This document shows positions 15,552 to 62,568 of a stretch of DNA of 64,000 nt, one piece after another. The DNA lies in IMG/VR virus record IMGVR_UViG_3300021440_000016. The stretch is one strand, 5' to 3'. The notes under the pieces are model-generated. The model saw only the letters and a program-made list of their open reading frames with translations, was not told the origin of the DNA and did no database searches. This DNA is from a virus (taxonomy: Duplodnaviria > Heunggongvirae > Uroviricota > Caudoviricetes). A program made the translations under genes and the position numbers. Numbering within the stretch: the stretch's first letter is position 1; each line of letters starts with the position of its first letter.

Positions 15552-15767
15552 ATGATTAGATTTCCTGACGAGGGCTGTACTGTAGACGGCTATCCAAAAT
15601 CAGAACGAGTTTTAGAAGATGTGTTGTATTGTGAACTTGTTTTTATATTTTTCAATTTACAAATAGCAGAAAATAAATTATGCTGGATTAACAACTGTAC
15701 TGGAAAAGAAGCAAAGCTTAAAGACGCCTTATGGGGTTATAGTTATGACAAAACGAATGAAGAATGA
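15552..15767 (+). CDS. small protein, motif-family-like
   Basis: Contains FIFFNLQIAENKL. Confidence 0.3.
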   Translation: MIRFPDEGCTVDGYPKSERVLEDVLYCELVFIFFNLQIAENKLCWINNCTGKEAKLKDALWGYSYDKTNEE

Positions 15768-24246: not shown

Positions 24247-24262
24247 TTTAACAACTATAGTC
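24247..24262 (+). promoter_or_regulatory. TTAACAACTATAGT copy of the conserved late motif
   Basis: Exact TAACAACTATA core 12 nt upstream of the HNH start, followed by AAGGAG RBS. Confidence 0.4.
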
Positions 24263-46063: not shown

Positions 46064-46077
46064 TTATAGTTGTTAAA
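46064..46077 (-). promoter_or_regulatory. TTAACAACTATAAT late motif copy
   Basis: Exact core. 14 nt upstream of the ATG of 44540..46051. Confidence 0.45.
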
Positions 46078-46085
46078 TCAGTAGC

Positions 46086-46499
46086 TTAAGCTCCAAAAGC
46101 CACGATTTTAAGTCTGTAAGTCTGCTCAGACTGTAACCCAGTAATATTGTTAATTAAAATACCAGTTTGGGTTTGTGTCCATGAAATAAAAATGCCGCTA
46201 GTCGGATACATAGAGGAAGTGGTTTGATTTAGAGCGCTTATAACCACTATCCCGTCTAATCTATTAGAGATATCCATTTGAAACTGGGTAGTAGTTGAAG
46301 GGGTACCCGCCTCGTCTACTTTGACATCAATTTCTTTAACGGTGCAGGCGATATTATCTCGGAGGGTTAATTTCCGATTTAAAGCGTCATAGATGTTCTC
46401 TATTCCGACGTTAATAGATACGGAAAGCTGATCAACAAGAGCTTGAAACTCTTGCTTAAAATCCGTACGTATTAATCGTTTGAATGAGGGTAGACGCAT
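46086..46499 (-). CDS. hypothetical virion protein
   Basis: ORF only. Confidence 0.35.
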   Translation of the reverse strand: MRLPSFKRLIRTDFKQEFQALVDQLSVSINVGIENIYDALNRKLTLRDNIACTVKEIDVKVDEAGTPSTTTQFQMDISNRLDGIVVISALNQTTSSMYPTSGIFISWTQTQTGILINNITGLQSEQTYRLKIVAFGA

Positions 46500-46500
46500 A

Positions 46501-47190
46501 TTACTTAATAAATTTGCCTAGGGCTTTTAGTTTCGTAGCTTTTGAAGCAATGCCAGAAGGAGAAATAAAATCAATAGGATCTATAGCTGGTTCCTCTAGC
46601 GGTTTGTCTTCCGCTTCCAATTCCTTACCTCTCGCTAACATCGCTGGAGATAAGCCCATAGGATTAGGCTCTGCAGCTTGTGCTGGAGAAGCGGTCAAGG
46701 CTTGTTTTGCTTTTTCTGCGGCTAGAGCTTTAATTCCACCGAGTGCGTCGTCTGTAGCTCCCTCAACGAAGCCGCTCTTAGGGCCAGCGTTGATCGGAGC
46801 TTGCTTAGCAGCAGCCATAGCCTCTGCCGTTCGCTCAGCCTGACCTTCTTTACGAGAAATAATATTTGCAAGTTGTTTCATGCGATCGTCTGCATGGCTT
46901 GCACCCTGATTCGCATACTCTTGATAAAGCTGTTTTAGATTACTCACATCCATTTCATGAGTACCTAGGTCACTAATCTTTGGAGGACGAAAGGAGGCAG
47001 AGATGTCCTGACCGGGAATGGCTCTAGGAGAGCGCTTAGCCAGCATTTTTTCTACGTAATCTTCGCCTGCACCAAGAAGTTTGCCTAATGATTGAAGTTT
47101 ACTCATAATATTACCTATAAGCTCTAATAGAATATGATTCGCCAGTGATAGATACCCCTGTAACTCCATACTGTTCTCGCGCGACCGCAT
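46501..47190 (-). CDS. hypothetical protein
   Basis: ORF; its start overlaps the 3' end of the 1550-aa gene. Confidence 0.3.
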   Translation of the reverse strand: MRSRENSMELQGYLSLANHILLELIGNIMSKLQSLGKLLGAGEDYVEKMLAKRSPRAIPGQDISASFRPPKISDLGTHEMDVSNLKQLYQEYANQGASHADDRMKQLANIISRKEGQAERTAEAMAAAKQAPINAGPKSGFVEGATDDALGGIKALAAEKAKQALTASPAQAAEPNPMGLSPAMLARGKELEAEDKPLEEPAIDPIDFISPSGIASKATKLKALGKFIK

Positions 47191-50100
47191 GTTCGAACTG
47201 AATTACTAGATATCTGGCGCGTTGACAAGGACGAGGAACATACGTACGGAATGGAACGGCATGAGAAGCTCCGCCAAAAAAGCCTTCTCCGAATCCTGTA
47301 TAACCAAAAATACCATTACCATCACCATTAAAGGGTATCTCTAATAGCTGAGGTAGTAGGTCGCTGGCCACTCTTACTTTAGCAGAAGTAAAGGCCTTTG
47401 ACAAGAACATAATAGTTAGCTCTCTAAAATGCTTGAAGCTCACAGGATCGCCAAAATGATCAGGGGCGTAGGTAAACCTAGACACAATTGCCTCATAGCT
47501 TTTTAAAGCGCCTACGATGAAGGGAAGTTCAAGATTAAGAGTGACATACCGAGTGGTATAGTTCACATCTACTACTATGGCTTCGATAAGCGTCGTATTC
47601 GTGATGGGAGTGTAATTAGAAAAAGCTGGACCCGCGTCCGCATTTAGCTTACTAATAATCTCATTGTAACAGGTACGCATATCCTCAAAGTTATTATCCA
47701 CAGTCACCCAAGTTCCAGTAGTGCCTACAGAAATCACTGAAACAGGTACACTAAAGGTATCCGCATCAATAACCGTAACTGTTTTTGCTCCATCGATTGA
47801 AGGAGAGGTGTCACTAGAACTGATCTGAATAACTCTACCAGAGATAAGGCCGTGGTTTACCGAAGTAATAACGCAGGGATCGGCCGCTGAGACTCCGGTT
47901 ATAGCTCCACTCTTAGTGCCTATTGAACTAGCAAAATCACTGGCAACAACGTTCGCATCGTTATCTAGTTTAGTGGCTAATGATACTAGCTTGGTTCTCA
48001 TGCTGTCACCGGAAACGGCCTTTAGCGTGGCTTCATAATCATGGTCAGCATTACCCGGATCTAAGTCAAGTTTTTTGAGTAGACTGTTAAAGGAATAAAG
48101 AGTAACCGTTTGCTCTTGAGTAATAACATCTCCGACTGAGATATTGGATACGTCAAGAAGTTTTAAACGGGTCTGGAAATAATTATTGGCTTCTAGCGTG
48201 GCTGCGAACTCGCGATCAGCATAATCTTCGCGTGTAAAGGTCTTACGCTCTTGCTCAATATTATTTATGTCTGACGCTCCGAGATACACCTTATCATCTG
48301 ATAGATTCACTACACCGCAAGTCTTAGATTGATTGAAAGTAGTCCAAGTGTTGGTTAAGTTGCTGTATCTATAAGCGATAGTTGCAAAATTATCTGCAGG
48401 GTTCTTTACGGTGTAAACCGTGTAGGAGTTATCGGAATCATATCCTATGCCCCAAGTAGAAGTTTTGAATCCCGTATATCCTGAAGAAGAAACCTTAAGG
48501 ATTTCAGTGTCAATGGGTCTTGAAATCGTCTGTACTCCGGATTCTGTGATAGTAGAAATTCCTTGAGTAGTCCATGCATAGATGTTATTATTGGCGACAG
48601 ACACGGAATCTGGAGCAACAAGGATACAAGAGCTGTCAAAGAGGGATAGGGTAAAGGGAGCAACTTCCCCTGAGATGCGGTATAATCCGTCTTCTTTTAA
48701 TACGAAAAGAGTGTCGCGTAGAGGGAAGATGCGAAGGATTGCCTTATCCTTAGCGCCAACGTCGAAATAGTTTACAGAAGGCACAGCTTCTGGCTCTTGG
48801 AGCTTTGAGTAAAAAACCCGATTAGGTTTGTCATCATTCTCCGTAACTACAGCAGAGTTTACAGGGATCAGCGCTCCGGTGTTGCCAGAAACGGTTATAT
48901 ACTCTACCACTCGGAACTGAGTGGAGTTTACGTAAGTGATCTGATGATATCCGTCAATAGAAGCTTCGCTGTTAGTGGCAGTGATGATTACTTTATCTAG
49001 ATTACGAAGACCATGAGGGGTAGAGGTGGTTACCAGCATGGTGCTAGGATTGCCAGTACTTATGCTGCTGATGGTCAGAGTTGGAGATAGGTCAGGATTA
49101 AAGGATAGCCCCGTATTGGAGTTATTGCCAACGATATAGAACGCAGGGGTATTTAGCTGCCTCGCCTCGATGTACATCTTTCCGGGCACGTCTGAGGCTC
49201 CAGAAAGATAATAGGCGTATACTCCCTCTGTTCTGTTTTTGTTAATAATCCGGATAAAACTTCTAGAAGTCTCGTCTACGGCTTGAGCAGAAGATACTGC
49301 ATCGGAAAGAAGAACGTCAAGAGCACCCAACTGGGAAGTCGCCACAGAGAAGCCCGTTGTTCCAGCTCCAGTATTTATAGCAGGACCAAAGCCTACGTTA
49401 GTAATTATAATGGAAGAAGTATCCAATTCTACACTAAAGTCATCTAAAGCGCCGACGGCCGTACCCGTAGCAGTAGCTACGGAAGTGGCAGTGGCGTTAG
49501 TTAGAATGTCAACTCTAATCCCCGTCTTGTTAGTTAGAGCGGGATCTGATCCGACACCGCTAACGCGGTACCATACATAGTATTGAGTTTGATCAAACGC
49601 ATTACTTAGGGTAAAATAAGTGCCAGCTAGACTTCCACCCACATCAGCTACAAAATCAACAGTAGAGGTCTGCTGAGTAACCCGCTCGCCAACACCGGCC
49701 GAGGTAGTTGCAAAAGTAAAGGCGGTATCGACATCCGTGGTGGCGATGGTGTAGCCTACGGACATGTTCTCTACCGTAACTACATTACCAGAGACATCCA
49801 CCAAAAAGTCTTGCGGATACTGAGAGAGTTTGTCAGCTAGTTTAGTTGCTACAATAGACGCACCATCATTTGTAGTAAGTTGAACCTCAATTCCAGTTTT
49901 ACCAGCAACAGCGGGATCAACTCCAGCACTTGTTTTAAACCAAACATAATATTCAGTGTCATTATTTGCAGAATTAATATAAAAATATTTACCATCTAGA
50001 CTGTCTGAGACATCCCCGATAGTAGTAATATCGGTAACTTGGGCTACCCCTTTGACGAAAGAGTAAGTATTAAATGAGCCGTCAGCGTTGGTGATGGTTA

Positions 50101-51763
50101 CCTTTGGAGTAGTGCCGGCGTCGTAGTCGCTGATCATGTTAGTAACACCAAGAAGATTGATCAACTTTTTGTGTTTTGTTCTGGTGTTTGCATAAAAAGC
50201 CACATTTTTAAAGACGTTTATATCTTTAGCAAAAGGTGGAATGTCGTTAGATTGGAGTATCCCTTGACCGGACTGAGCGTTAGTGTAGAGATTAGCTCCC
50301 CGGAAAGTATCCGGAGTATTGTCTATGACAACCATTTCGAGAGCAGCAAGCTCCGCAGCCGTGGGGTAGGCCTCATATACTTGCTGCATTTCGTCACCGG
50401 GAGCAACGTCCGTAGAAAGAACCGAGGTGCCAGTGGCAGGAGCTACCGCTGTACGGTAAAGTTGTAGAAAGTAATTGCTATTGACATCTTCTGGGATAGT
50501 GAGAACTAGCTTTACAGAGGAAGAAGTAGTTACGTCTAGAACTGAAATGTACTGAGTCTGCTCAGGAGTAGGAATAATATTTGAATTTTCAGCTTGTAAT
50601 TCAGAAATAATGGAGCTAAGATATGATTGAAGAGCCACTAACTGAGCATTAGTTGCTGGAGTTGAGGGCACTCCGGGCTGGGTGATCGATTTATAACTAT
50701 CGTCATTGATCGAGGCCCCAGTAACGGTAGCTGCTCCACCCGCCGTAGTAGTGAAGGTGATAGTAGTTGAGGTTACAGAGCTTACCGTTTGAACACCGTT
50801 AAGTGAGCCGGTAGCAGAACTAAAGCCTGCCAAAGAGATTTTTTGGCCAGAAACAAAGTAATTACTAGCAGCTCCAGCAGAAAAAGTAACCGTGCAAAGT
50901 CCGGCAGAAATAGAGGCCGACCCAATAGTTAGAGGTGCTCCAGTGCCCGTATCATTGGCAAGAAGTAGATCAGTATCTATCTTTGCTGCAAGAGCCAAAA
51001 GATTTGTACGAAGTTCTACAGCAGAAGCACTTAAAGGGAGTTTAAGCGTAGAAACATAATTGCCGTCGCTGATTAAAGAACCAGAACCAGCTAAGGAGTC
51101 TAGCGCACCAAGAACGGCAATAAAATCCTGCACAAGTAAGGTTTGTAGGGAATTAAAAACTTCAGTTCTCTGGCTAGGAGTTCCTAGGATAAGATTATTA
51201 TTTTTATCCTTGGTAGCCCATACTGCGCGATAAGCCACAGCTGAGTCTTCATCCATAAAACCAGTTTGGTTACCTGCTAGGTACTGCGGAGTGGCCGTAA
51301 AGTCAATAGCTTTAATACCTCCGGCTTGCGTAACAAAACCTGCTGTCGTGGTGAAGTCAGAGGCACTCGTTGCAGAAATCTTTTTAATGCCTTCAGAGGT
51401 AGTGAAGTAGAAGTTACCATTAGCCTCTATGCTTTTAATACGTAGACCTGTTTGAGTTTCTGAAAAAGAGTCTGCGAAGTTCTTAAAGATGGCTAGATTA
51501 GCCTCTGTCGTTTCTCCGCTGTCGTAGGCTAGGGTATTTCCATAGTGAGCAAGAATACGCTGTTTATACACAGCGAGTTGCTTCGCTCTGTCGCCAGAGG
51601 AACCAATTCCAGAGTCATAAACCTTGTATCCACGACGAGATTCCACAATATCGTCACGACGAATGACAACATCGCTAGCTTCAGTCATGCTGCCAGCAGG
51701 AACCTCAATTGGATTTGGGCTAAAGTTAAGACCTAGAGCTTTTAGAGTTGGTCCAGTAGGCAT
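47111..51763 (-). CDS. large virion structural protein (1550 aa; tail/injection component candidate)
   Basis: Long Thr/Ser/Gly-rich beta-type sequence. No polymerase or ATPase motifs. Lies between the fibre genes and the ejection-like proteins. Confidence 0.4.
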   Translation of the reverse strand: MPTGPTLKALGLNFSPNPIEVPAGSMTEASDVVIRRDDIVESRRGYKVYDSGIGSSGDRAKQLAVYKQRILAHYGNTLAYDSGETTEANLAIFKNFADSFSETQTGLRIKSIEANGNFYFTTSEGIKKISATSASDFTTTAGFVTQAGGIKAIDFTATPQYLAGNQTGFMDEDSAVAYRAVWATKDKNNNLILGTPSQRTEVFNSLQTLLVQDFIAVLGALDSLAGSGSLISDGNYVSTLKLPLSASAVELRTNLLALAAKIDTDLLLANDTGTGAPLTIGSASISAGLCTVTFSAGAASNYFVSGQKISLAGFSSATGSLNGVQTVSSVTSTTITFTTTAGGAATVTGASINDDSYKSITQPGVPSTPATNAQLVALQSYLSSIISELQAENSNIIPTPEQTQYISVLDVTTSSSVKLVLTIPEDVNSNYFLQLYRTAVAPATGTSVLSTDVAPGDEMQQVYEAYPTAAELAALEMVVIDNTPDTFRGANLYTNAQSGQGILQSNDIPPFAKDINVFKNVAFYANTRTKHKKLINLLGVTNMISDYDAGTTPKVTITNADGSFNTYSFVKGVAQVTDITTIGDVSDSLDGKYFYINSANNDTEYYVWFKTSAGVDPAVAGKTGIEVQLTTNDGASIVATKLADKLSQYPQDFLVDVSGNVVTVENMSVGYTIATTDVDTAFTFATTSAGVGERVTQQTSTVDFVADVGGSLAGTYFTLSNAFDQTQYYVWYRVSGVGSDPALTNKTGIRVDILTNATATSVATATGTAVGALDDFSVELDTSSIIITNVGFGPAINTGAGTTGFSVATSQLGALDVLLSDAVSSAQAVDETSRSFIRIINKNRTEGVYAYYLSGASDVPGKMYIEARQLNTPAFYIVGNNSNTGLSFNPDLSPTLTISSISTGNPSTMLVTTSTPHGLRNLDKVIITATNSEASIDGYHQITYVNSTQFRVVEYITVSGNTGALIPVNSAVVTENDDKPNRVFYSKLQEPEAVPSVNYFDVGAKDKAILRIFPLRDTLFVLKEDGLYRISGEVAPFTLSLFDSSCILVAPDSVSVANNNIYAWTTQGISTITESGVQTISRPIDTEILKVSSSGYTGFKTSTWGIGYDSDNSYTVYTVKNPADNFATIAYRYSNLTNTWTTFNQSKTCGVVNLSDDKVYLGASDINNIEQERKTFTREDYADREFAATLEANNYFQTRLKLLDVSNISVGDVITQEQTVTLYSFNSLLKKLDLDPGNADHDYEATLKAVSGDSMRTKLVSLATKLDNDANVVASDFASSIGTKSGAITGVSAADPCVITSVNHGLISGRVIQISSSDTSPSIDGAKTVTVIDADTFSVPVSVISVGTTGTWVTVDNNFEDMRTCYNEIISKLNADAGPAFSNYTPITNTTLIEAIVVDVNYTTRYVTLNLELPFIVGALKSYEAIVSRFTYAPDHFGDPVSFKHFRELTIMFLSKAFTSAKVRVASDLLPQLLEIPFNGDGNGIFGYTGFGEGFFGGASHAVPFRTYVPRPCQRARYLVIQFEHAVAREQYGVTGVSITGESYSIRAYR

Positions 51764-52992
51764 TAGAACCTCCTGCGAGTACCGAGGCGACCCCAGCGTA
51801 GTAAAGAGTATTTAGCAGTGATCTTACGAGGTGAACCATCAACTCGGTTATCGAGTAAGGTCCCTTCACTTTTATTGATTTCTTCGATCTTGGCGCTCGA
51901 CATCTGTAGACCAGCAACATCGCCCATGGCGGCTAAAATACGCGCAGCAGCCCTTTCGGCCAACCCGTTGTGTAGTTCGGGCGGAAGCTGAGGGATAATG
52001 CATTCATTAGCAGTACAAACATAATCGCCGACAACTAGATCTTCTGGCACCTCGCTTGCCCGGAAAGAAATAGAGCTACTAGACACGCCGTTAATCGGAA
52101 TAAGCACATCGTAAGTACGAATTTTATGTCCGGGTTTGGTCTGCAAGAAGTCAACATAACTAGACGAGGTAATATTCGAAGGAATACTATTGAATACAAT
52201 CCCTTGAGTAGCTTGAATAGTTAGAGCGGCCGTATTGGAAGAAGTCAAAGTAGTGTCTAGTTCTTGATAGGATACCGTTACGACAGACGTAGAGGGGGAG
52301 CCGTTGTTAGCGGACACTTCTCCGACCGTATTAATGGCTTGAGCTAGGCTGGTAGCCGTGGCAATATCCGATGCGCCAATCTGAAATTGGAGAACAGAAG
52401 GGGAACCGGACACTGCAGTAAAGACGGAGCTACCGACAGTGACGGTATCTCCAGCAACTAGACTAGCGTTATTGACAGTAATGGTCTTTGAGAAGCCAGA
52501 AATAATGGCTGCTCTTTCGTCCTTTACGAGTTGATTCGGACGTAGAAAGAAACAGAAAACAAGGTACCCTGTAGCATCGCCCGAAACGGAAGGGGAAAGC
52601 ACTACATCGTTGTTTTCAATGTAGTATTTATGTACAGCTTGATTAGCCCCAATGCTTCGTTGAAAGAAAGCCTTATCCTCTTCAGTAATTTGAGACATAC
52701 CGAAAAGGTTACCGGAAGAGTCCTGCCAGAACAAATCACGAAGCTTCATCCCGATCGCACGATCAGGAATAGCGTATCGAGACTTATTTGAACGCAGAGG
52801 AACAGTCTTAGTATAAACTAAATACTCTTCGTGATACTGCATTACCGCAGGGATCTGCGAAATAGCCACTTCTTCGTTGACAAAGCGAAGAATGTCGTCT
52901 TCTGTCATCAACGTTTGCGCTATTGGCATCGAAATCTTACGTTTAATAGATTCGATGATGCCGGAACTAGTGAGCCAAGGAGTAGCTGCCAT
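51763..52992 (-). CDS. virion structural protein (409 aa)
   Basis: ORF coupled (ATGA) to the 1550-aa gene. Confidence 0.35.
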   Translation of the reverse strand: MAATPWLTSSGIIESIKRKISMPIAQTLMTEDDILRFVNEEVAISQIPAVMQYHEEYLVYTKTVPLRSNKSRYAIPDRAIGMKLRDLFWQDSSGNLFGMSQITEEDKAFFQRSIGANQAVHKYYIENNDVVLSPSVSGDATGYLVFCFFLRPNQLVKDERAAIISGFSKTITVNNASLVAGDTVTVGSSVFTAVSGSPSVLQFQIGASDIATATSLAQAINTVGEVSANNGSPSTSVVTVSYQELDTTLTSSNTAALTIQATQGIVFNSIPSNITSSSYVDFLQTKPGHKIRTYDVLIPINGVSSSSISFRASEVPEDLVVGDYVCTANECIIPQLPPELHNGLAERAAARILAAMGDVAGLQMSSAKIEEINKSEGTLLDNRVDGSPRKITAKYSLLRWGRLGTRRRF

Positions 52993-53019
52993 AATGATTC
53001 CCCTTTTAATGAGAACTGA

Positions 53020-53511
53020 TTATAGACGCTTCTTAGCCTGCATTCTTTCTTTTAGCTTCATAAGATGAGAAAGCTTCGCGTCTAGTTGGGATTCGTCTAG
53101 ATCTTCGCCTTCTTCCATTGGCTCAATATCGAGACCTTTTGGCTTAATGGCTTCCATTTCTAGACCGTCATGAGACTTCATGGTTTCTCCATGTTCAGCG
53201 GCTTCGTAATCAGGAGATTCCTGTGATTCATGCTCTGGACCTTCTTCATCGCCAGTAGCTTCTTCTTCCTTGCCTTCTTCACGAGCGGTCATCATGTCCT
53301 TGGCCTTCTGTAGACCATCTTCTAGACCTTCTTTGGAGTCTGAAGCGACGGTGACCTTCTTCATGCCATCCTGTAGACGGCCTTTCATCATGTCCTGAGC
53401 CATATCCTTAACATGCTGAAGGACTGACATCTTCGCATCACGCTCGGTATCACCCATTTCAGACTTCTTATCTTTCATCTTCTTAGCAAGAAGCTTGTCA
53501 AATTTTTCCAT
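53020..53511 (-). CDS. highly acidic protein (163 aa)
   Basis: About 35% Asp+Glu; chaperone-, scaffold- or mimic-like composition. Confidence 0.35.
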   Translation of the reverse strand: MEKFDKLLAKKMKDKKSEMGDTERDAKMSVLQHVKDMAQDMMKGRLQDGMKKVTVASDSKEGLEDGLQKAKDMMTAREEGKEEEATGDEEGPEHESQESPDYEAAEHGETMKSHDGLEMEAIKPKGLDIEPMEEGEDLDESQLDAKLSHLMKLKERMQAKKRL

Positions 53512-53524
53512 TGTGTTTCTCCAA

Positions 53525-54010: not shown

Positions 54011-54011
54011 A

Positions 54012-54027
54012 TAATATAGTTGTTATT
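54012..54027 (-). promoter_or_regulatory. AATAACAACTATATTAT late motif copy
   Basis: Core TAACAACTATA directly abuts the ATG of 53525..54010. Confidence 0.35.
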
Positions 54028-55995
54028 TTAAACAGTTAGCGTAGAAGCCCTGAATTTAATTGTGGCAGAAGATCCAGTAGACGAAGAAACATACTGAATT
54101 TGTCCTAAACTCGTGATACTAAAGGAGATTCCGCAAGTATCCCCAACGAAATCTTCAGAAAGCTCCCAGTTAGAAGCCTTCTGAATGCCCATTAACCTGT
54201 AAACAGCAAAAGTACTACCCCTGACAATACTGACTTGAGCCTCAAAAGAACGAACAGTGGCGTTAGCAAACGAAAATCCGGTAATATTGGCTGCAGATAC
54301 TTGGTTGTCGGCCGCAGTAAAGCTAGTCTCAGCAATATCTCCAGTAGATTTTACTGATTTTGAGTCTAATTGTGCCTGAATTCCAGAAGTTACGCCTGAA
54401 ACGTAGCCTAATTCTGTGGCGGTTACGGTAGATTCAACAATAGCTCCGCCGGTAGATACCATTACCTTACCATTGGTAAGTGCCGCAGAGCTATTAGTTC
54501 CGCCATTGGCAATAGCCACTACACCGGAAACGTTATTGGCTATCCCGTTTAGAGTTGCTGTAATCGTGCCAGCTGAGAAATTACCACTTGCATCACGCTT
54601 AACGATCGTACCAGAGGTATTCGAAGTCGTCGCAGCATTAGCCGCTAACTCTGCAGAGTGGATATTAGAGGCGCTTGAGCCACCTACGCTATTAACAGTA
54701 GAAGAAACAGCTCCCGGTCCAGAAGCCATTACATCGCCGGTTAGGCCGGTGATATAATTACCTGTGGGCTGCTTGGTGGCGAGCCCTAGGTCCACGTATT
54801 TTTTAGTGGTCACTTCTTCATCAAGGAAAGGGGTTGTAGGGTTTCCACCACGGGTAATCTTTATTTGGCCGTCAGTAAGCTCGATTAATGAGGGAGTGGC
54901 GCCATTGCTTACGCTGACATAACCGGGGGATACCTGAGCACTATCTCCGCTATTGGTGTCAGAAATAGAGATGTTTGAGCCCGGATCGATGGTGATTGTC
55001 TGAGTTCCATCACCAACATCAAGGTTAATCTCCGAACCAGTCACGAACATACCAGCAGTGGAGGTGATAAGACTGGTAAAAGTCTTTTCTCCGCCTAGAG
55101 TTTGAGCATCTGCGGTCACTAAACCGGGGTTGGTACCGTCAGCAGGCTGTAAAGTAATTTGTTGATTAGAGAGAGAAAGGCCACTAGCATTAGGGCTACT
55201 TCCTACTGAGGTAATACTAATAGGGTCATGAGAAGATTGATTAAGTGTAATACCCCCAGAACCGGGAGTAACAGTAGCAATTCCTGCGGTATTAGGGGCC
55301 TTAAGTACGAAGCTATTGCGGTCACCTGACGTTTTAACATAACCTGTAGCTGATCCTGCTTCTTCTAATTCAAAACCGGCGCCTGCGGCTGATCCCGCGC
55401 CGCCGCCATCGTTAAGAGTGATTAGAGCATCGGTAACATTAAGATTTGTAACCTGATTATTGTTTACTGAGCCTACAATATTAACAGTAGAACTTGCCGT
55501 GCCGATGTTAATAACAGAAGCATTAGTAGAACCGATAGATAAAGTACCACCCAACGTCGAAACATCTAGGCCTCCATTAGCATAGGTCGCGGCAGTGGCA
55601 GTAATATTCCCGGTAACATTGACGTTGTTAGAGAAGGTTTTGTCACCTGCGAAAGATTGAGCCCCGGTAGACACGGCACCGGGATGAGAGGCGTCGGCGG
55701 GCTGAATAGTTAACGTATTCCGCACGATAGCGCCAGAGGTATCTTTATTTAGAGTGTATCCCTGAGTGTTCGGACTAGAGCCAAAAGCTACAGAGGTCAA
55801 CCCAGTGTCTACCCACTTGCTGGTAGTGCCATCATAAACGTAGACGTGGTCGGTAGAGCGAACTACCACTAGCATTCCATCTGCACCAGAAGGTAGAGAA
55901 GACTCATCGGCTACTGGATTAGCGAAGTTGGGATTCGAGGAGCCAGAACCTACTAAATCGAACTGGCCGGTTAGGGCATTAAAAGAAAAACCCAT
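54028..55995 (-). CDS. tail fibre protein
   Basis: Thr/Ser/Gly/Asn-rich beta-repeat protein. Shares IVKRDASGNFSAGTITA...VAIANGGT module with 56492..59122. Confidence 0.55.
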   Translation of the reverse strand: MGFSFNALTGQFDLVGSGSSNPNFANPVADESSLPSGADGMLVVVRSTDHVYVYDGTTSKWVDTGLTSVAFGSSPNTQGYTLNKDTSGAIVRNTLTIQPADASHPGAVSTGAQSFAGDKTFSNNVNVTGNITATAATYANGGLDVSTLGGTLSIGSTNASVINIGTASSTVNIVGSVNNNQVTNLNVTDALITLNDGGGAGSAAGAGFELEEAGSATGYVKTSGDRNSFVLKAPNTAGIATVTPGSGGITLNQSSHDPISITSVGSSPNASGLSLSNQQITLQPADGTNPGLVTADAQTLGGEKTFTSLITSTAGMFVTGSEINLDVGDGTQTITIDPGSNISISDTNSGDSAQVSPGYVSVSNGATPSLIELTDGQIKITRGGNPTTPFLDEEVTTKKYVDLGLATKQPTGNYITGLTGDVMASGPGAVSSTVNSVGGSSASNIHSAELAANAATTSNTSGTIVKRDASGNFSAGTITATLNGIANNVSGVVAIANGGTNSSAALTNGKVMVSTGGAIVESTVTATELGYVSGVTSGIQAQLDSKSVKSTGDIAETSFTAADNQVSAANITGFSFANATVRSFEAQVSIVRGSTFAVYRLMGIQKASNWELSEDFVGDTCGISFSITSLGQIQYVSSSTGSSATIKFRASTLTV

Positions 55996-56006
55996 AAGTC
56001 ACCTTA

Positions 56007-56276
56007 TTAGGAGATGCGTTCAGCGGAAATCATTGTAGCATACGTATTATCCGTGTAGATAACTTGTATAGCGTATAGTACCGTAGCTCCGTCGAAATAC
56101 GTGAAAGTTAAAGTATCGTTGGGACTTGTAGTCGTAGACGCTGCTTGCGTAATCTTATGTCCAACTTTCCCAGTAAGAAATCCTGAGGTTTGGACAGACT
56201 TATCTACGTCGTTGAAAGCGAATCGAGTAGCTTGGTTTGCATCCCGCTCTGAGATAGGCTTACTGGATTGTGACAT
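56007..56276 (-). CDS. hypothetical small protein
   Basis: ORF between the fibre genes. Confidence 0.3.
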   Translation of the reverse strand: MSQSSKPISERDANQATRFAFNDVDKSVQTSGFLTGKVGHKITQAASTTTSPNDTLTFTYFDGATVLYAIQVIYTDNTYATMISAERIS

Positions 56277-56277
56277 A

Positions 56278-56511
56278 TTACATCCTCGATTTCTTGATTT
56301 TCATCATCTGCTGAATTCTGGGAAGCTTTGGCATAGCTGGAAGTTCCGGAGCAGAATCAGGACTTTGAGGTTCTGGTAGTTTTGGTAACTTGAGATTAGG
56401 AGCGGCCGTCATACCCTGTTTAGCGGCTGCCGCCTTACCTGCAAAAAAAGCTCTACGACTGTTAGCTGATTTAAATGCCATAAAGTATTCCTTAGTTCCC
56501 GATACGATCAA
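56278..56511 (-). CDS. hypothetical small basic protein
   Basis: ORF only. Confidence 0.3.
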   Translation of the reverse strand: MIVSGTKEYFMAFKSANSRRAFFAGKAAAAKQGMTAAPNLKLPKLPEPQSPDSAPELPAMPKLPRIQQMMKIKKSRM

Positions 56512-59122
56512 TGCTGATCCAGTTGCGCGACGGCACGGATCCGGCGTTCGTGATCGTCGCTCCGCTATTGTGGAACATATTAATGGAGATAAAATCTCCG
56601 GCCTGGAGACGCAGAGTTCCGCTGCCGTGGACGTACGAATTCATCCCCGGTGACGCCACTGAGAAATTCTCCAACATCAAAGATTCGCCACCAAATGTAT
56701 TTTTTGCGCCTACGCGGAACTGAATCGTATTTGCAGTCGGGCCTTGCAGCGCAAACATACCCTGAATCAAGTAAATCCCAGAGACCGGAGCAACGAACTT
56801 CCAGTTAGAACCGGTCGTGACGGCGCTGTGCGTGTCCCATTCACGAGCATCAAAGTCTAGAGTGGTTGTAGTGCCGTCTCCGAATGAGTAGCTATTTGAA
56901 GTGCTATATTTAACACTGACGGTTTCGCTTGCGGCAACCTGGCTGGGCCCTGAGACACGTGCGATAGTGAAGAAACTATTGTCGGTCCCCCCACCGTAGG
57001 TACCAGCTCCGTCGGAATACCCGTAAACGCGAACTTGATCGCCAGCGTTGAGGTACTCAGCAGGAGAAGACACCTTCGGGAACGCTTGGTTCTTTGTCCC
57101 GGCGGAGCGCTCGTAACCGGCAATGCGGGAAGAGCCATTCACGTAGACCGCAACGAGGGCAGTATCGTTAGCATTGAAGGATGCGCTGGTAATTGCCAGT
57201 TCAGCTGAAATCGCGTAATAGCCGCTAACCGGAACAGTATATACGCCGCCACTAAAGCCCGCGTGAGTATCGCTAATGACTGATCCCCAGCTGACAGGGT
57301 TCATGCTGCCATTAAGAGTTCCGCTAGGAGTAATGGCTTTAAATGCGACTACCCTGGTTTCGGCATCGCTGGACATCTGGGCGTTCGAAGACCAGCCAGC
57401 AACAGCGATGTCGGTAGTGTAGACAGAGAAGACTTCTCCGGGGGCCAGACTGCTGCTGCCATTAACAGCAAAGAGGTCGCCTACAGATCCGGTCTGAATC
57501 GCCAGGAACAGAGAAGACGGGTCCGCGGCCTGAGTAATAACGGCATGCTGCTCGCTGTTGCCGTAGAGACGCGCGTACGAGCCTACCTTGGTGGTTTGGC
57601 TGAATTTCAAAATATTAATGTTCATCCCAGCCGGAAGGCTGAACGAAGCGGGACCAGCCGCAGGGCTACCAGCAGTCGCCGTACCCTTAATCTGAATGCT
57701 ATCCCCCATTCGGCGGTAGAAGAATGTTACGCCGGTGACGCTGCCAAGATTGCTGAAAGTCGGGGTATACGCGGTCCAGTCGGTAACCGGAGTGCCCTGC
57801 GCGATAACCTGCGGAGAGATGCTGAAGTTATCGAGCTTTAGGCTGTAAGCTGAAGCGGAAGTTGAAGCAACGTGTAGGATTAAACGGTAAGACGTGCTGT
57901 TGGAGTTAGTCTGGAATGTAGCTTTTTGCTGCATAGAACCAGAAACAACATTCTCAATTTGATATCCAGCAGGTTGAATTACCTGTGAATTCGTGATATC
58001 GTAGAGGTATACTGCCATATCGCCAGTGGCGTACGTGCCTGAGTCCACGGCGTAGTCAAAACTTACAGTAAGAACCTTGGCCTTATCCGCTGAGTCTATG
58101 GTAAAGTCATAGCTAACGCCTTCACCTTGACGATCTGCAGCATCTTTAGAGAAGAGGAAGCTCGCAGACCCACGGAGAGGGTCGGACGTAGTCCGAGTAA
58201 AGGTAACAGTGGGAGATCCACCCGTTCCGTTTACAGGTTGAGCCCCAGCCGCATCAGCATAAGTGACATACCCTGACGTGTCAGCTTCGGCGTCAGGATT
58301 AGCGGACATGTAATTAATACCGCCGGAGAAACTTGAAAACGTAGGAGTTCCGCCTAGAACCTTTAGAACTTGTCCAGAGGAGCCAATAGGAAGACGGACA
58401 TTGTTGGTACCGTCATTATAAATCATGTCACCAGCAGTGGTAGTGGGAGAAAGAGCGTCAAAAGCAGTCTGCTTGGTAGTCTGTCCAGTACCTCCGTTTG
58501 CAATAGCGACGGTGCCGGAAACGTTAGTGGCAGTGGTAGCGGTGGTGGCATTACCGGATAAAGCAGCGGTGATGGTACCAGCTGAGAAATTACCACTTGC
58601 ATCACGCTTAACAATAGTGGATACTACATTGGAGCTAGTGGCATCTTGAGTGTCGGCTACAGACTGAGCTACTTCGGTAGAGGTTTTTCCGCCGACGGCG
58701 TCTACGGAAGTAGTTGATTGTGTACCAGAAACGTCACCAGAGAGGGAGCCCGTGAAGTCAGTGGCGGTATCTGCATTACCAGTAACGTCACCAGTGACAT
58801 TCCCGGTTAGGTTAGCGGAGATTGTTCCAGCTGAAAAGTTACCTGAGCTATCCCGAGCTACAATCGCGGAGGGAGTGTTAACCGCTGTGGCCGTAGTTGC
58901 TGAGTTAGGAATATTAGAAAGAGTATTGGTAGAGCCGGAAATTGACTTATTCGTTAGTGTAGCAGCTTTTGCTTCCTGAACGACGCTATCCGCACTCACG
59001 CCATCGTGGATGGAAAGCTTACCAAGGTCGGAACGATACTCCATTTCGCCCTGAGCCGAGATATTCTGTGAGCTATTTGGAACAAGTCCGATGGCTTTAA
59101 GGAATTTTCTGATGTTTAACAT
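56492..59122 (-). CDS. tail fibre protein (876 aa)
   Basis: Internal repeats VARDSSGNFSAGTISANLTGN / IVKRDASGNFSAGTITAALSGN. A 35-nt stretch is identical to the other fibre gene. Confidence 0.55.
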   Translation of the reverse strand: MLNIRKFLKAIGLVPNSSQNISAQGEMEYRSDLGKLSIHDGVSADSVVQEAKAATLTNKSISGSTNTLSNIPNSATTATAVNTPSAIVARDSSGNFSAGTISANLTGNVTGDVTGNADTATDFTGSLSGDVSGTQSTTSVDAVGGKTSTEVAQSVADTQDATSSNVVSTIVKRDASGNFSAGTITAALSGNATTATTATNVSGTVAIANGGTGQTTKQTAFDALSPTTTAGDMIYNDGTNNVRLPIGSSGQVLKVLGGTPTFSSFSGGINYMSANPDAEADTSGYVTYADAAGAQPVNGTGGSPTVTFTRTTSDPLRGSASFLFSKDAADRQGEGVSYDFTIDSADKAKVLTVSFDYAVDSGTYATGDMAVYLYDITNSQVIQPAGYQIENVVSGSMQQKATFQTNSNSTSYRLILHVASTSASAYSLKLDNFSISPQVIAQGTPVTDWTAYTPTFSNLGSVTGVTFFYRRMGDSIQIKGTATAGSPAAGPASFSLPAGMNINILKFSQTTKVGSYARLYGNSEQHAVITQAADPSSLFLAIQTGSVGDLFAVNGSSSLAPGEVFSVYTTDIAVAGWSSNAQMSSDAETRVVAFKAITPSGTLNGSMNPVSWGSVISDTHAGFSGGVYTVPVSGYYAISAELAITSASFNANDTALVAVYVNGSSRIAGYERSAGTKNQAFPKVSSPAEYLNAGDQVRVYGYSDGAGTYGGGTDNSFFTIARVSGPSQVAASETVSVKYSTSNSYSFGDGTTTTLDFDAREWDTHSAVTTGSNWKFVAPVSGIYLIQGMFALQGPTANTIQFRVGAKNTFGGESLMLENFSVASPGMNSYVHGSGTLRLQAGDFISINMFHNSGATITNAGSVPSRNWISIDRIGN

Positions 59123-59138
59123 TAGTAATTTCTCCTAA

Positions 59139-59618
59139 TTACTGAGATAAAGACTGTGCGACGTAAGTAATCTTACCCACGTGATTAAGCCCACTTAGAG
59201 CTGAGGTAGTTAGTAACATTTGACCAGTATCGTCGATTGACAACTCAATAGAGGCGCTGCCGGAGCGCTGCTGGATGATTTCCCATTTCGTTCCAACCGG
59301 ATTCGTAGGATTATAAACTACAATAAGATCCCCAGCTTCGGTCACTGTAGTGCTAGTAGTATTTCTGTATACAGAATAGCGAATAAAGGCCGCACGCACC
59401 GCTGAGGTAGCAAAAGAAAGGTTAGGTATGGCGATATTAGATCCGGGGTTATAGGCGTCTATAGAAAAGGATTGAGGCGCCACGTCAAAAGAACCTACTA
59501 CGGAGGATAGAGCATCCTCTACGGCTTTAGCGAATTGAATAACGGCTTCAGACCAGTTAGGGGAAGCCGCAGAATCTGGAAAATCTATTACTGTGCCAGA
59601 AATGGTAATAAGGGGCAT
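59139..59618 (-). CDS. virion protein (159 aa)
   Basis: First gene after the capsid terminator and late motif; AGAGG RBS. Confidence 0.35.
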   Translation of the reverse strand: MPLITISGTVIDFPDSAASPNWSEAVIQFAKAVEDALSSVVGSFDVAPQSFSIDAYNPGSNIAIPNLSFATSAVRAAFIRYSVYRNTTSTTVTEAGDLIVVYNPTNPVGTKWEIIQQRSGSASIELSIDDTGQMLLTTSALSGLNHVGKITYVAQSLSQ

Positions 59619-59651
59619 AGGTTAACCTCTATAAATAGCAGAATTCGCTAA

Positions 59652-59664
59652 ATATAGTTGTTAA
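59652..59664 (-). promoter_or_regulatory. TTAACAACTATAT late motif copy
   Basis: Exact core. 37 nt upstream of the ATG of 59139..59618, downstream of the capsid-gene terminator. Confidence 0.45.
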
Positions 59665-59696
59665 TCCAGCAGAATTAGCTGGATAATTTAATAAAT

Positions 59697-59737
59697 TCTG
59701 CGTATTATATAAAAAAGAAAGGGACGATGAACTTAAC
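59697..59737 (-). terminator. intrinsic terminator after capsid gene
   Basis: On the - strand: GGGACG-loop-CGTCCC stem followed by TTTCTTTTTTAT. Confidence 0.5.
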
Positions 59738-59775
59738 CACCGTCCCCATCTTAATTACTGAAACAAATCACTATC

Positions 59776-61023
59776 TTAGGCGCTATTGACAACGCTGGTG
59801 ATAATGACGTTACGAGCTGGCGCGGCGCAGAATACAGCCTGATCGCTGTATAGGCGGAGTTCGTAAGCGGCAGAGTTCTCTAGATCGCGGAAGAACTCTT
59901 CGCCCTGACCGGGGCGCTTGAAGGTCATGTCGGTTGAACCAACACGGAACCAACCTTCGATATCGAGGAGGTAGCAATAACCTTCCTTGACATAGATTGA
60001 AGGCTCGATTTCAATTTCGCCGTTCTGTGAGTGGAAAAGGATACCCTTTGAACCCACTTCGGTCTTATCCTTGCTGTAGCTGTCGTCATAACGACGGAGA
60101 GCAGCTTGGTCGTTGAGCATGTTCGCCCAGCCACGAGGATTGACTAGAGCGAGGAGCTTGCCGTCGAGACCCTTTTCAACCGCGCGAGCAGCAGCCTGAT
60201 TGATCTTGCTGAAGCTTAGCGCAGCGGAACCAGCAGAGTACTGGTTACCACGGAAGAGGTTGTACGTGCCAACGTTGATGTTGAAGAGCGTGCCGGAAGA
60301 AATCGTGAGAATCTTGTGGATTCCGGGGAATTCGTTGCCGTAAGCGCCCTTGTGCCAAATAACGTCACCAGCGCTGAGTGAGAGCGTGGAAACGTTGAGG
60401 GTGATGGTGCGAGCATCCATGTCAACAGACTGAACCGTGGCTTCGCCGCGTGACGTAGCGCCGGTTGAGTCGCGGACTTCGATTGGCATGCCTTCAGCGC
60501 CGGCCCAAATGCCGGGCGCCCACTCAGCCGTGGTGATGGTGATGACCGCGCCGCTCTGTGAAGCGACCGTGCCATAGCCCATCTGGCCGTAAAGCATTTC
60601 AATCTCAAGCTTCTTCGCCATAGAGCGAAGCATGTTGGCTACTAGGAACTTAGTAGCGTCCATGAACGCCTTAGAGCCGCCCTGAGCAGCGCGTGAAGCA
60701 GCGACATAGCCGAGGAGTGAGCGGAGGACAACGGGGTTACCCTTGACCTGAGCGTCCTTGATCTGACCGGCGACTGGAGCATTAAGATTGAAGGCATCTT
60801 CGTCGCTTGACGCGAAGGTGACGCCGTGTTCTAGACCGAGGATTACAGGCTGGTGATAGAGGTTACCGGGCTGCTTGTCCTTGGACATGAACTTGATCTT
60901 GTTTAGAAGCTTAACGCCATCAGGGATTAGCTCAGCGAGCTTGTCCGCGTAGGCTTCTTTGAAAAGGCCGTTGAGCGTGCCAACGGTACCTGCTGGATTA
61001 CCAAAAGTATTAGTAGTAGCCAT
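59776..61023 (-). CDS. major capsid protein (putative)
   Basis: 415 aa downstream of scaffold-like and small decoration-like genes. Elevated GC. Own terminator. Strong AAGGAG RBS. Confidence 0.5.
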   Translation of the reverse strand: MATTNTFGNPAGTVGTLNGLFKEAYADKLAELIPDGVKLLNKIKFMSKDKQPGNLYHQPVILGLEHGVTFASSDEDAFNLNAPVAGQIKDAQVKGNPVVLRSLLGYVAASRAAQGGSKAFMDATKFLVANMLRSMAKKLEIEMLYGQMGYGTVASQSGAVITITTAEWAPGIWAGAEGMPIEVRDSTGATSRGEATVQSVDMDARTITLNVSTLSLSAGDVIWHKGAYGNEFPGIHKILTISSGTLFNINVGTYNLFRGNQYSAGSAALSFSKINQAAARAVEKGLDGKLLALVNPRGWANMLNDQAALRRYDDSYSKDKTEVGSKGILFHSQNGEIEIEPSIYVKEGYCYLLDIEGWFRVGSTDMTFKRPGQGEEFFRDLENSAAYELRLYSDQAVFCAAPARNVIITSVVNSA

Positions 61024-61048
61024 TTGAATTTACTCCTTAAGTAATTGA

Positions 61049-61348
61049 TTAGGCTTCGTCGATAACGTATTGAAGCTCAATAGCGTCAGCGGCGGCGAGA
61101 GCGGCAGAGAGGGTTAGGGTTACAGCGGTACCAGAAATTGACTGTGAAGCAGCCGCAACTGGAGCGATAGTCCCAGCTGAGTCGTCCATAAAGAGGGCCA
61201 TGCGGACTTCTTTAATCGTTTCTTTAACGTCGATAGTAGCAGTTGAGCCACTGACGGATACCATGTGTTTATCAGCGAGTTTTACGACAACCTTCTGGAC
61301 CTTGAGTTGATTATCAAGGACGAGGCTATCTTTTGATTGGAATGCCAT
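61049..61348 (-). CDS. small head protein (decoration candidate)
   Basis: 99-aa ORF between the scaffold and capsid genes, preceded by the late motif. Confidence 0.3.
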   Translation of the reverse strand: MAFQSKDSLVLDNQLKVQKVVVKLADKHMVSVSGSTATIDVKETIKEVRMALFMDDSAGTIAPVAAASQSISGTAVTLTLSAALAAADAIELQYVIDEA

Positions 61349-61474
61349 ATTTTATCCTTTGTTTAAGACAAATAAGTTAATAGATAGTTATTGTATGTGT
61401 CGCCCTTGATTATTCGGTGTCCTTACTCGCTTTTAACGGTTATAAGGAGTCAAATAACTACAGACACTTACAGA

Positions 61475-61487
61475 TATAGTTGTTAAT
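61475..61487 (-). promoter_or_regulatory. TTAACAACTATAT late motif copy
   Basis: Exact core about 125 nt upstream of 61049..61348. A degenerate second copy CAATAACTATCT lies at about 61396-61407. Confidence 0.4.
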
Positions 61488-61504
61488 ACTCTTTAATATT
61501 CTTA

Positions 61505-62491
61505 TTAAATATTAAAGAAATCTTTAAACGTTTGTTTTTGCTTAGGTTTTTCGTCTGACTTAGAGCTTGACCCCGTGTCTACAGCCGCTTTCGCAGCCGT
61601 GGGGGGAGTCTTAGCAGCTTTAACCGCAGCGATGTTCTTTTTACGTACGCGAGTAAAGACATCCTTACCAATAATAGCTTCGATGACTTCTTCTGGCATT
61701 ACGCGGAACATATCCTTAAGTTCGGACTGAATTTCATCGCGAATAAGAGGGAGAACGTCTTCAGGAGATACGTCAATACCTTCCTGTAGCCCCATGAGCA
61801 TATAATCAGCCATCTTTTTAACTACATAAGGGCTCTTAGGGAGGTCCGATTTGTCTAGAGCCTGCGTAATAAGCATGTCATACCGCTCGAAGGACTCTTG
61901 CTGGATGCGTTCAAAGTCGCGCTTCTTAGCTTCTTCCTTTTCCCGCTCACGTTCTTCCTTGATAGCCTTAAGTTCAGACTCAAGCTTTTCTTTTTCGATC
62001 TGTTCCGGACTTTTTTGAGAGTTAGCGATCTCTTCCTCAATCAAATCAGCGGCCATTTTCTTAACGTCAATCCCGATAGAAGGGTCGGCGAGAACCTTAC
62101 GGGGGTTTTTGCGTAGCTCGTCGATAAAGCTTTTTACTTCTTTTTCGAGCTGGGAGTATTCTTGAGCGCGTTTCTGCCCCATTTTGGACATCTGAAGATT
62201 GCGCTTCATGAATTCAATAGATTCTTCGTCGTCTGGAATCTCAAACGGAAGACGTTCTTCGACTTCACGACCGTCGATCTTTAATTTTAGGCTTTTTAAC
62301 ATCTTCTTCGCAGCTTTTTGCTCAGAAGGGGTGCCCTTAGCAGCTAATTCCTGTAGATTTTCTACAGATTGACCTTCGGCAGAAGCGTCAAGCGCTGAAT
62401 TTTCTTGATTTGGGAAGGGACTTTCGTTAGAATTAGAAGAAGAAGGGGCTGATTCTTGCGCAACTGGCGCACTAGCATTAATTTCAGACAT
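61505..62491 (-). CDS. scaffolding protein (putative)
   Basis: Highly charged E/K-rich helical protein immediately upstream of the capsid operon. Confidence 0.5.
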   Translation of the reverse strand: MSEINASAPVAQESAPSSSNSNESPFPNQENSALDASAEGQSVENLQELAAKGTPSEQKAAKKMLKSLKLKIDGREVEERLPFEIPDDEESIEFMKRNLQMSKMGQKRAQEYSQLEKEVKSFIDELRKNPRKVLADPSIGIDVKKMAADLIEEEIANSQKSPEQIEKEKLESELKAIKEEREREKEEAKKRDFERIQQESFERYDMLITQALDKSDLPKSPYVVKKMADYMLMGLQEGIDVSPEDVLPLIRDEIQSELKDMFRVMPEEVIEAIIGKDVFTRVRKKNIAAVKAAKTPPTAAKAAVDTGSSSKSDEKPKQKQTFKDFFNI

Positions 62492-62553
62492 ATAATATCC
62501 TTTATTCGCCCTAAAGAGGGTAGATTAAGTTCGCTGGTCCTTATGGATACAGC

Positions 62554-62568
62554 AATTATAGTTGTTAA
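62554..62568 (-). promoter_or_regulatory. GTTAACAACTATAAT late motif copy
   Basis: Exact core about 60 nt upstream of the scaffold ATG with an AAAGGA RBS. Confidence 0.45.

Follow-up and report, generated by a model that had tools for sequence, protein, structure and literature searches.

Phages re-program the host RNA polymerase (RNAP) with factors such as gp55 and gp33 of T4, gp36 and gp79 of phiEco32 and the sigma factors of SPO1, which have taught how promoters are recognised and serve as orthogonal expression parts. T4 late promoters are read by gp55 together with gp33 and the sliding clamp, and the homing endonucleases of T4 are expressed from late promoters. The middle and late promoters of phiEco32, recognised by the phage sigma gp36 together with gp79, consist of a single 11-mer, tAATGTATAtA, situated 6-8 nucleotides (nt) before the start; the centre of its AATGTA is at -11.5 (PMC4281155, PMC12276001). 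Here we describe a repeated word of 11 bases, TAACAACTATA, found in IMG/VR record IMGVR_UViG_3300021440_000016, a tailed phage (Caudoviricetes) of which a stretch of 64,000 nt, called the window below, was analysed. This word is almost certainly the phage group's own late-gene promoter, placed before genes for particle building, DNA packaging and lysis, where "late" is deduced from gene functions only. Taken as a whole, the data are best explained by a single-element late promoter read by host RNAP with a phage-encoded specificity factor, an explanation that we consider fairly probable.

Among known systems, phiEco32/SU10 (Kuravirus) is the closest, closer than T4. Both phages use a single conserved element of 11 bp without a -35, and the geometry of the gp36 promoters (~9-11 bp near -11.5) recurs here if the position that we deduce below from ATG spacing and leader stems is right: TAACAA would occupy -14 to -9, as AATGTA does in phiEco32. 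Aligned end to end, the two 11-mers agree at 7/11 positions, with the outer letters TAA-NNNN-TATA. In both, a late structural strand converges on a replication strand, and the portal and adaptor of the phage described here match SU10 (kuravirus) Pfam families. The two systems differ in the core, which is AACAAC here and AATGTA there, so that the gp36 consensus is not found, and no gp36 or gp79 homologue was detected here. They also differ in gene content, since only thymidylate synthase and an HNH protein are common at BLAST level, and in the many more promoter copies per genome and the frequent leaderless late genes seen here.

An earlier reading of the same stretch (the original prediction) had compared the motif with the T4 TATAAATA type. 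The comparison was right in spirit: T4 also has short, invariant promoters confined to the -10 region before its late genes, it also keeps homing-endonuclease genes under late promoters, and its reader, gp55, is a minimal sigma of such high divergence that sequence comparison has difficulty in recognising it. The gp36 promoter of phiEco32 is nevertheless the closer analogue. The T4 element lies at about -13 to -6 and differs in sequence and length from the motif described here, whose core would be 2-3 nt further upstream, and there is no recognisable clamp or clamp-loader set in this phage.

The repeated word and its conservation

Look-ups of identical proteins revealed the window as three quarters of a genome of ~85,350 bp that assembles as a circle (closed by reassembly from four loci; the ENA contig has 85,491 bp, and its ends overlap by 141 nt). 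All six exact copies reported by the original prediction were found in the window (Table 1), against 0.05 expected, and 0/100 shuffles reached six. The measured distances from motif to ATG are close to those given before, and the intrinsic terminator that had been noticed after the capsid gene is present. The closed genome holds eight exact copies of the word, all outside long open reading frames (ORFs) and all co-directional with the downstream gene; of the two that lie beyond the window, one precedes the portal gene by 17 nt and the other a late gene of 114 amino acids (aa) by 16 nt. Among the 10/11-mers of the genome, none is more over-represented than this word. Copies with one mismatch stand before the terminase operon, the M15 peptidase region and the GIY-YIG-like gene, and matches with two mismatches are at chance level (32 vs 25.8 expected). 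A diverged copy, TTACGACTATAT, had been proposed at 20139-20150; it is there, but as two-mismatch matches are at chance level and it is missing the core TTAACAA, we did not retain it. A literature search with the word and its complement returned unrelated primers only.

The genes that follow the exact copies in the window are given in Table 1. The ~47 kb of early and middle genes are free of the motif except before the homing-endonuclease gene, an HNH gene inserted just after the DNA polymerase gene, and this is the only exact copy on the early/middle strand. Endonuclease-like genes are found twice under the late promoter, the second being the GIY-YIG-like gene outside the window. On the late strand, the 161-aa repeat-containing protein has a C-terminal hydrophobic segment, the post-capsid operon runs from a 159-aa gene to an 876-aa gene, and the product of the 328-aa gene upstream of the capsid genes is scaffold-like by position only. 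Two one-mismatch copies inside ORFs of the window are less clear: TAACAACTgTA, which has an upstream GCTGGAT in common with the 59.6-kb copy, is possibly a weak or internal promoter, and gAACAACTATA may be an internal promoter or a chance match.

More than 1,300 metagenome clusters are homologous to the terminase, many of them on contigs of 85-95 kb, and the promoter would serve a large clade of uncultured phages of this size. We gathered 83 metagenomic loci (1.05 Mb; three around the terminase and 80 from IMG/VR) with terminases 44-68% identical. On their late-gene strand AACAACTA occurs 229 times vs ~38 expected, and on the opposite strand 67 times vs ~34 expected. When unique TAACAACTA sites on the late strand were considered, 130/136 lay outside long ORFs and 6/136 inside, whereas 64% of random positions are inside; on the other strand, 0/28 were inside a long ORF. 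The motif is clearly not equally frequent inside genes or on the non-coding strand. Its placement is orthologous before the terminase-operon, scaffold-like, capsid-operon and tail genes at 59-68% terminase identity, and in locus L010 a copy also precedes the gene after the portal. Placement and clade conservation thus support the proposal, made in the original prediction, of a phage-specific late promoter at transcription-unit starts. TAACAACTATA would be the core promoter of a late class formed by packaging, head, tail and lysis genes plus homing-endonuclease-like genes.

The clade consensus is a/t-rich-TTAACAACTAT(a), and the part conserved in relatives is TTAACAAC(TA). The 3' end varies: TACT, TAAT, TAGT and TATT are found in L010, and ATAT, GTA and GTT in more distant relatives. 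Lineage variants carry C, A or G at position 8 of TTAACAANTA, or C to T at position 5 of TTAACAAC (the fourth base of the 11-mer), and one lineage carries TAATAACTATA. At the same positions before late genes, TTAACAAATAT, TTAACAAGTA/T and TTAACAAGTT are found in more distant relatives; these come from metagenome-assembled genomes that were assigned to Bacteroidia, Proteobacteria and Bacteroidales by binning, which is unreliable for phage contigs. From these alignments the deep core appears to be TTAACAA, with a lineage-specific 3' part.

Probable start site and leaders

Promoter function can be deduced from the way in which the copies are arranged. In this genome and in loci L009 and L010, the intergenic region that separates the terminase operon from a peptidase gene of opposite orientation contains divergent copies placed back to back, and no upstream transcript could feed both directions. 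Another copy, at 59.6 kb, lies just downstream of a strong terminator, that of the capsid gene, which is 57 nt upstream of it and forms with it a terminator-then-promoter module. Finally, the distance from motif to start codon ranges from 3 to ~135 nt. Each of these observations argues for initiation rather than for a signal at the RNA level.

Among 270 unique sites, 23 are exactly 3 nt and 6 are 4 nt before the ATG of a real ORF without a ribosome-binding site, and only 2 are at 0-2 nt from an ATG. The fixed 3-nt spacing points to a leaderless mRNA starting at the A of AUG. The 54-kb copy of the window belongs to the 4-nt class and leaves no room for a ribosome-binding site, so its mRNA would have no leader or almost none. 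Where a ribosome-binding site is present, it starts 5 nt or more after the motif, and the stems of the terminase-operon leader begin 3-5 nt after the motif. From the spacing peak, the leader stems and the positions of the ribosome-binding sites we infer a start ~4-5 nt after the 11-mer. This would put TAACAA at about -14 to -9, with ~5 A/T-rich bases of poor conservation after it, a geometry that suggests a -10-region element for a multisubunit polymerase with a sigma-like factor, unlike a T7-type promoter. The bases just after the motif are mostly A/T and often pyrimidines.

The original prediction had taken the TATAAT/TATATT end of the motif for a -10 element. This part of it was rejected, because with a -10 at TATAAT transcription would start within those ORFs that open 3-4 nt downstream of the motif; moreover, the 3' end varies in relatives and the sixth position of the putative TATAAT hexamer has almost no information across the clade. 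Its statement that there is no canonical -35 was borne out: in 193 unique late-strand sites, no -35 or other upstream position is conserved beyond A/T richness, and no second conserved element was found within 50 nt either side of the motif. The promoter would therefore be, on the available alignments, a single element without a -35, and its products would be leaderless mRNAs, mRNAs with short leaders carrying a ribosome-binding site, or mRNAs with structured leaders of ~100-130 nt.

The best described of the structured leaders is that of the terminase operon. In ~24/27 genomes (counted by eye), independent minimum-energy folds gave the same nested three-stem architecture, and RNAalifold showed compensatory changes in the inner stem, for example G-C 9, A-U 9, U-A 3 and C-G 2 at one pair. 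As a separate observation, this leader of ~90-130 nt, with one or two hairpins between the late promoter and the first gene (L004 ~90-205), had no Rfam match and is possibly, as modelled, a new cis-regulatory or stabilising RNA. In the leader of the capsid operon a long hairpin was also predicted (Table 1).

The probable promoter and its possible reader

The most likely reader would be the multisubunit RNAP of the host, redirected by a phage-encoded specificity factor made earlier in infection. Such a factor would be functionally like gp36 of phiEco32 or gp55 of T4, and too divergent or too novel to be recognised. The element is of a known kind, that of the single-element late promoters read by gp36 in phiEco32 and by gp55 in T4; its sequence and the clade that uses it are new, and the reader is probably new as well. 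Both the nature and the origin of this reader are deduced from the promoter and its setting.

We searched the complete genome for proteins that could play this role. No ORF matched an RNA polymerase, a sigma domain or a known phage transcription factor in Pfam, PHROGs or NCBIfam, and neither a T7-like nor a multisubunit RNAP was found, so that what the original prediction had said of the window, that no RNAP or sigma-like gene is recognisable, holds for the whole genome. An RNAP hidden in the quarter of the genome outside the window was ruled out by genome closure, which added ~21 kb without an RNAP gene. Every early or middle ORF of more than 250 aa is annotated as something else. A search of concatenated small ORFs against the PDB gave matches dominated by AAA ATPase. 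As for the T4 components, gp55-like sigma, gp33 and sliding clamp had no PHROG, Pfam or NCBIfam match in any ORF, no dedicated gp55/gp33 search having been made; gp55-like proteins are notoriously divergent.

Several points weigh against a host RNAP with a phage factor. The sigma-like protein that it calls for was not found in the three databases above. No credible homologue of gp36 or gp79 was found by phmmer or BLASTP in the genome or among 4,820 ORFs of relatives, where the sole sub-threshold match (BLASTP E = 0.003) was to the low-complexity 161-aa late protein. In hhalign, the two candidate families described below gave a probability <1% against gp36, and the two modelled conserved candidates are unlike sigma domains. 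The start site and the temporal class come by deduction, and a reader encoded by the host is conceivable. Finally, sigma-70-type matches are nowhere enriched (30 vs 27.8 expected in the late region, and likewise no enrichment in the early region), which lends no support to a contrast between host promoters early and phage promoters late.

A more specific form of the explanation that we favour, which we put forward tentatively and with some doubt, is that the specificity factor comes from a family not yet known in transcription, without detectable relation to sigma-70, gp55 or gp36, and directs host RNAP to TTAACAA at -15 to -9, giving many leaderless late mRNAs. By position, the best candidates for such a novel factor would be a 175-aa basic protein with a conserved NNARNR sequence and a 235-aa winged-helix-like protein, whose genes form a syntenic pair across the clade at the 3' end of the middle cluster, neither of them preceded by the motif. 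The 175-aa protein, whose gene ends the early/middle strand, is a member of an uncharacterised family that is large (465 representative clusters), with conserved KYPAL..NLKTR..EEYVNA..NNARNRD; it has no PDB, Pfam or cultured-phage match, and its model is all-helical, with a confident N-terminal domain and no known fold match. On the model and its position it is a candidate reader only. The 235-aa protein is predicted to have two winged-helix-like domains (pLDDT 74) and matches weakly to winged-helix DNA binders only, which makes it a candidate DNA-binding regulator and no more.

Two further proteins were considered as primary reader and set aside, the 174-aa GIY-YIG-like protein and a 62-aa zinc-ribbon protein. 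Their genes are themselves motif-driven at 3-nt spacing in several relatives, which makes them late-class genes and unlikely primary readers. The zinc-ribbon protein, with four cysteines and a basic tail, is found in 59 related loci, and its gene sits between the GIY-YIG-like gene and the terminase operon.

Among other explanations, recognition by an unmodified host holoenzyme, with primary or alternative sigma, no phage factor and timing set otherwise, fares best and is still unlikely. It would account for the failure to find a phage sigma or RNAP and for a 3' end that is often TATAAT or TATATT in this genome. However, 11 identical bases at eight sites, kept at 44-68% terminase identity, are atypical of host promoters, and the TTGACA-like -35 hexamer that sigma-70-type promoters have 16-18 bp before the -10 is missing upstream of the motif. 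In such promoters the -10 hexamer is TATAAT, with conserved A(-11) and T(-7), and it lies 6-8 nt before the start. The -10-like TATA(A/T)T end is seen in this genome only, relatives having TACT, TAAT, TAGT, ATAT or GTA, and a -10 at that place is incompatible with ORFs starting 3-4 nt downstream. Host holoenzyme would also have to explain why the motif is missing from ~47 kb of early and middle genes, the homing-endonuclease gene excepted. That distant relatives bearing the core are binned with different phyla, Bacteroidia and Proteobacteria, counts weakly in the same direction, given that such binning is unreliable.

A divergent phage RNAP, single-subunit or two-barrel, could be hidden in one of the large unannotated proteins (1550, 876, 720, 655 or 586 aa), several of which have no family match at all, but we judge this improbable. 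The 3' half of the motif, ACTATA, equals -6 to -1 of T7/SP6 promoters, the upstream flank is A/T-rich, and as in T7 and SP6 an identical word is repeated before each late operon. Nevertheless, all these proteins are encoded on the late/structural strand downstream of the motif, and would thus be made only after late transcription begins, and no early or middle ORF of more than 250 aa is left unannotated. The DxDGD metal motif is in none of the large proteins; the only match of that search, DYDGD near the N-terminus of the 161-aa repeat protein, was judged coincidental. The 1550-aa protein, the largest, and the 876-aa protein have no PDB match by sequence, and the former has no Pfam or PHROG match either, unlike the giant virion-packaged RNAPs of N4-like and crAss-like phages, systems with hairpin-type or early promoters; here the motif precedes late genes and not early ones. 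The promoter itself differs from those of T7 and SP6: only 9-11 bases are conserved against about 17-23 (-17 to +3/+6), conservation ends ~5 nt short of the inferred start while in T7-type promoters it extends through +1, and the bases that follow the motif, mostly A/T and often pyrimidines, do not form a G-rich initiation region. With the polymerase gene absent from the closed genome, the single-subunit alternative offered by the original prediction is disfavoured.

Equally poor are the prospects of a regulator site (for an activator, a repressor or antiterminator loading) beside an unrecognised, degenerate core promoter. The clade does have conserved proteins that might bind such a site, the 235-aa protein with its two winged-helix-like domains and the 62-aa zinc ribbon, the latter resembling the small zinc-finger late activators of P2/P4-type phages. 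Yet a second conserved element is missing within 50 nt either side, the ORF starts 3-17 nt after the motif at many sites, with no room for a downstream core promoter, and a site for a P2 Ogr-type activator is expected at about -55, not about -10. An action in RNA, as endonuclease processing site or translational enhancer in a polycistronic late mRNA (like T7 gene 10 epsilon, UUAACUUUA, with which the motif has UUAAC in common), would fit the strand-specific orientation just upstream of several ribosome-binding sites but is very improbable, as divergent back-to-back copies cannot both sit on a pre-existing transcript, one copy follows a strong terminator, and distances to the ATG run from 3 to ~135 nt and peak sharply at 3 nt, too short a space for a ribosome-binding site.

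The genome around the motif

Table 1. Positions of the motif copies and of other features. Coordinates are those of the window except where a locus outside it (L004, L005) is named.
Feature	Position	Strand	Details
Exact copy	24249..24259	+	15 nt before ATG (24275) of the 282-aa HNH endonuclease gene (phrog_374)
Exact copy	46065..46075	-	13 nt before ATG (46051) of a 503-aa late protein; GAGG ribosome-binding site between
Exact copy	54015..54025	-	4 nt before ATG (54010) of the 161-aa repeat-containing late protein
Exact copy	59653..59663	-	34 nt before ATG (59618) of the 159-aa gene heading the post-capsid operon
Exact copy	61475..61485	-	126 nt before ATG (61348) of a 99-aa gene preceding the major capsid gene
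Exact copy	62557..62567	-	65 nt before ATG (62491) of a 328-aa gene upstream of the capsid genes
One-mismatch copy TAACAACTgTA	15689..15699	+	inside a 71-aa ORF, 45 nt before the next ORF (15745)
One-mismatch copy gAACAACTATA	44296..44306	-	inside a 126-aa ORF, 44160-44540
Intrinsic terminator	59720..59747	-	11-bp stem, 6 G-C pairs, T run; directly after the capsid gene stop
Capsid-operon leader	61349..61474	-	126 nt; long hairpin from 3 nt after the motif, -26.8 kcal/mol, z = -3.0
Major capsid gene	59776-61023	-	phrog_14242 major head protein
HNH endonuclease gene	24275-25123	+
GIY-YIG-like gene	L005 2247-2771	-
62-aa zinc-ribbon gene	L005 861-1049	-
235-aa protein	37604..38311	+	clade-conserved; not preceded by the motif
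175-aa basic protein	38268..38795	+	last gene of the early/middle strand; not preceded by the motif
Class II ribonucleotide reductase	7467-9323	+	nucleotide-metabolism set
Thymidylate-synthase-like protein	14856-15542	+	nucleotide-metabolism set
IMPDH/GMP-reductase-like protein	29420-30583	+	nucleotide-metabolism set
dATP/dGTP diphosphohydrolase	33369-33683	+	nucleotide-metabolism set; PF18909
dUTPase	33683-34129	+	nucleotide-metabolism set
Small-ORF motif family, window	12486-12713, 17638-18087, 20762-20989, 21472-21696, 23987-24184, 25385-26039, 29244-29420, 33191-33415, 34129-34377, 34664-34864, 35287-35502	+
Small-ORF motif family, outside the window	L005 712-864, 1448-1609, 1968-2156	-
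T(C/A)TAG(A/T)AAC(A) array	L005 1217-2950	-	5-10 same-orientation copies
T(C/A)TAG(A/T)AAC(A), window copy	26050-26059	+	before the MoxR-like ATPase gene
tRNA-like elements	L005 7398-7474, 9337-9401	+	Rfam, 33.8 and 47.5 bits
Tyrosine-recombinase catalytic domain, then receiver	L005 8693-9869	+	186 aa and 113 aa
Non-coding region	L005 2870-3880		~1 kb
ART-PolyVal late protein	62576-63487	-	303 aa
Gly-rich Mtd_N protein	L004 6793-7989		398 aa

Genes for replication and nucleotide metabolism occupy the + strand of the window from 1 to ~38.8 kb. They encode a primase-helicase, a DNA polymerase of family A whose exonuclease subunit is separate, Erf, a PD-(D/E)XK nuclease, MoxR/VWA proteins, and the class II ribonucleotide reductase, thymidylate-synthase-like protein, dUTPase, dATP/dGTP diphosphohydrolase and IMPDH/GMP-reductase-like protein. 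The gene of the PF18909 diphosphohydrolase adjoins that of the dUTPase, and this combination of enzymes hints at modified or biased DNA precursors. The - strand, from ~39 to 64 kb, carries very divergent structural genes, among which nothing is recognisable beyond the major capsid protein and a weak match to the SU10 adaptor. The ~21 kb outside the window hold the terminase, an SU10/P22-type portal, further virion and tail-like proteins, the M15 peptidase, a run of small ORFs, ~1 kb of non-coding DNA, and early genes for two SAM-lyase-like proteins, a short tyrosine recombinase and a receiver domain.

No nucleotide relative was found when 49 kb of the window were compared by megablast with 50,697 phage records. 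The sole isolate relative is an extrachromosomal phage of Silvanigrella, with ~29% protein identity in capsid, portal and terminase, from which the motif is absent. Queries with the M15 peptidase had no match in IMG/VR and JGI contigs, and ARAGORN called no tRNA gene that could serve as a clue to the host. Rfam did report two tRNA-like elements above its gathering score that ARAGORN leaves uncalled; each of them adjoins a repeated word, AAAATTAGTCCC, of which another copy is at position 431 of the window.

Further observations concern the early genes and the region upstream of the terminase. A tyrosine-recombinase catalytic domain followed by a stand-alone CheY-like receiver lies among the early genes, and the phage that carries this short recombinase is apparently lytic. 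The non-coding stretch of ~1 kb has long runs rich in G and others rich in C; it separates divergent late-strand and early-strand genes and may contain genome ends, an origin or an early control region. A second clade-wide word, T(C/A)TAG(A/T)AAC(A), is repeated in and around the conserved ~175-aa GIY-YIG-like gene upstream of the terminase, the product of which is probably inactive. Relatives L008, L012, L040, L044, L051, L072, L079 and L091 have this word too. The copies are partly intragenic, in different reading frames, and their letters differ between lineages; judged by sequence, the array looks like iterons or like a packaging or regulator binding array.

The pattern [FY]x(L/D)L(N/S/G/D)(I/V)(I/L)(D/E/T/N), for instance FNLNIIDD, YELRIIDE, FDLNIITNE and SDLGIIDDD, recurs in at least 15 small ORFs of ~50-80 aa, which look like an expanded paralogous family scattered through the early and middle genes. 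On the late side, a 303-aa protein with an ART-PolyVal (ADP-ribosyltransferase) domain may, from its domain, be an injected host-modifying enzyme, and a Gly-rich protein with an Mtd_N domain is encoded nearby in the late operon.

What the motif reveals is a widespread environmental phage clade with an unusually clean and strongly conserved single-element promoter, a well-constrained start site and no recognisable reader, and the identity of this reader is the most interesting point that it raises. The lineage-specific variants of the motif, at defined positions, make that identity directly testable. Within the clade, the motif is in addition a simple annotation marker for the starts of late operons and for leaderless genes.

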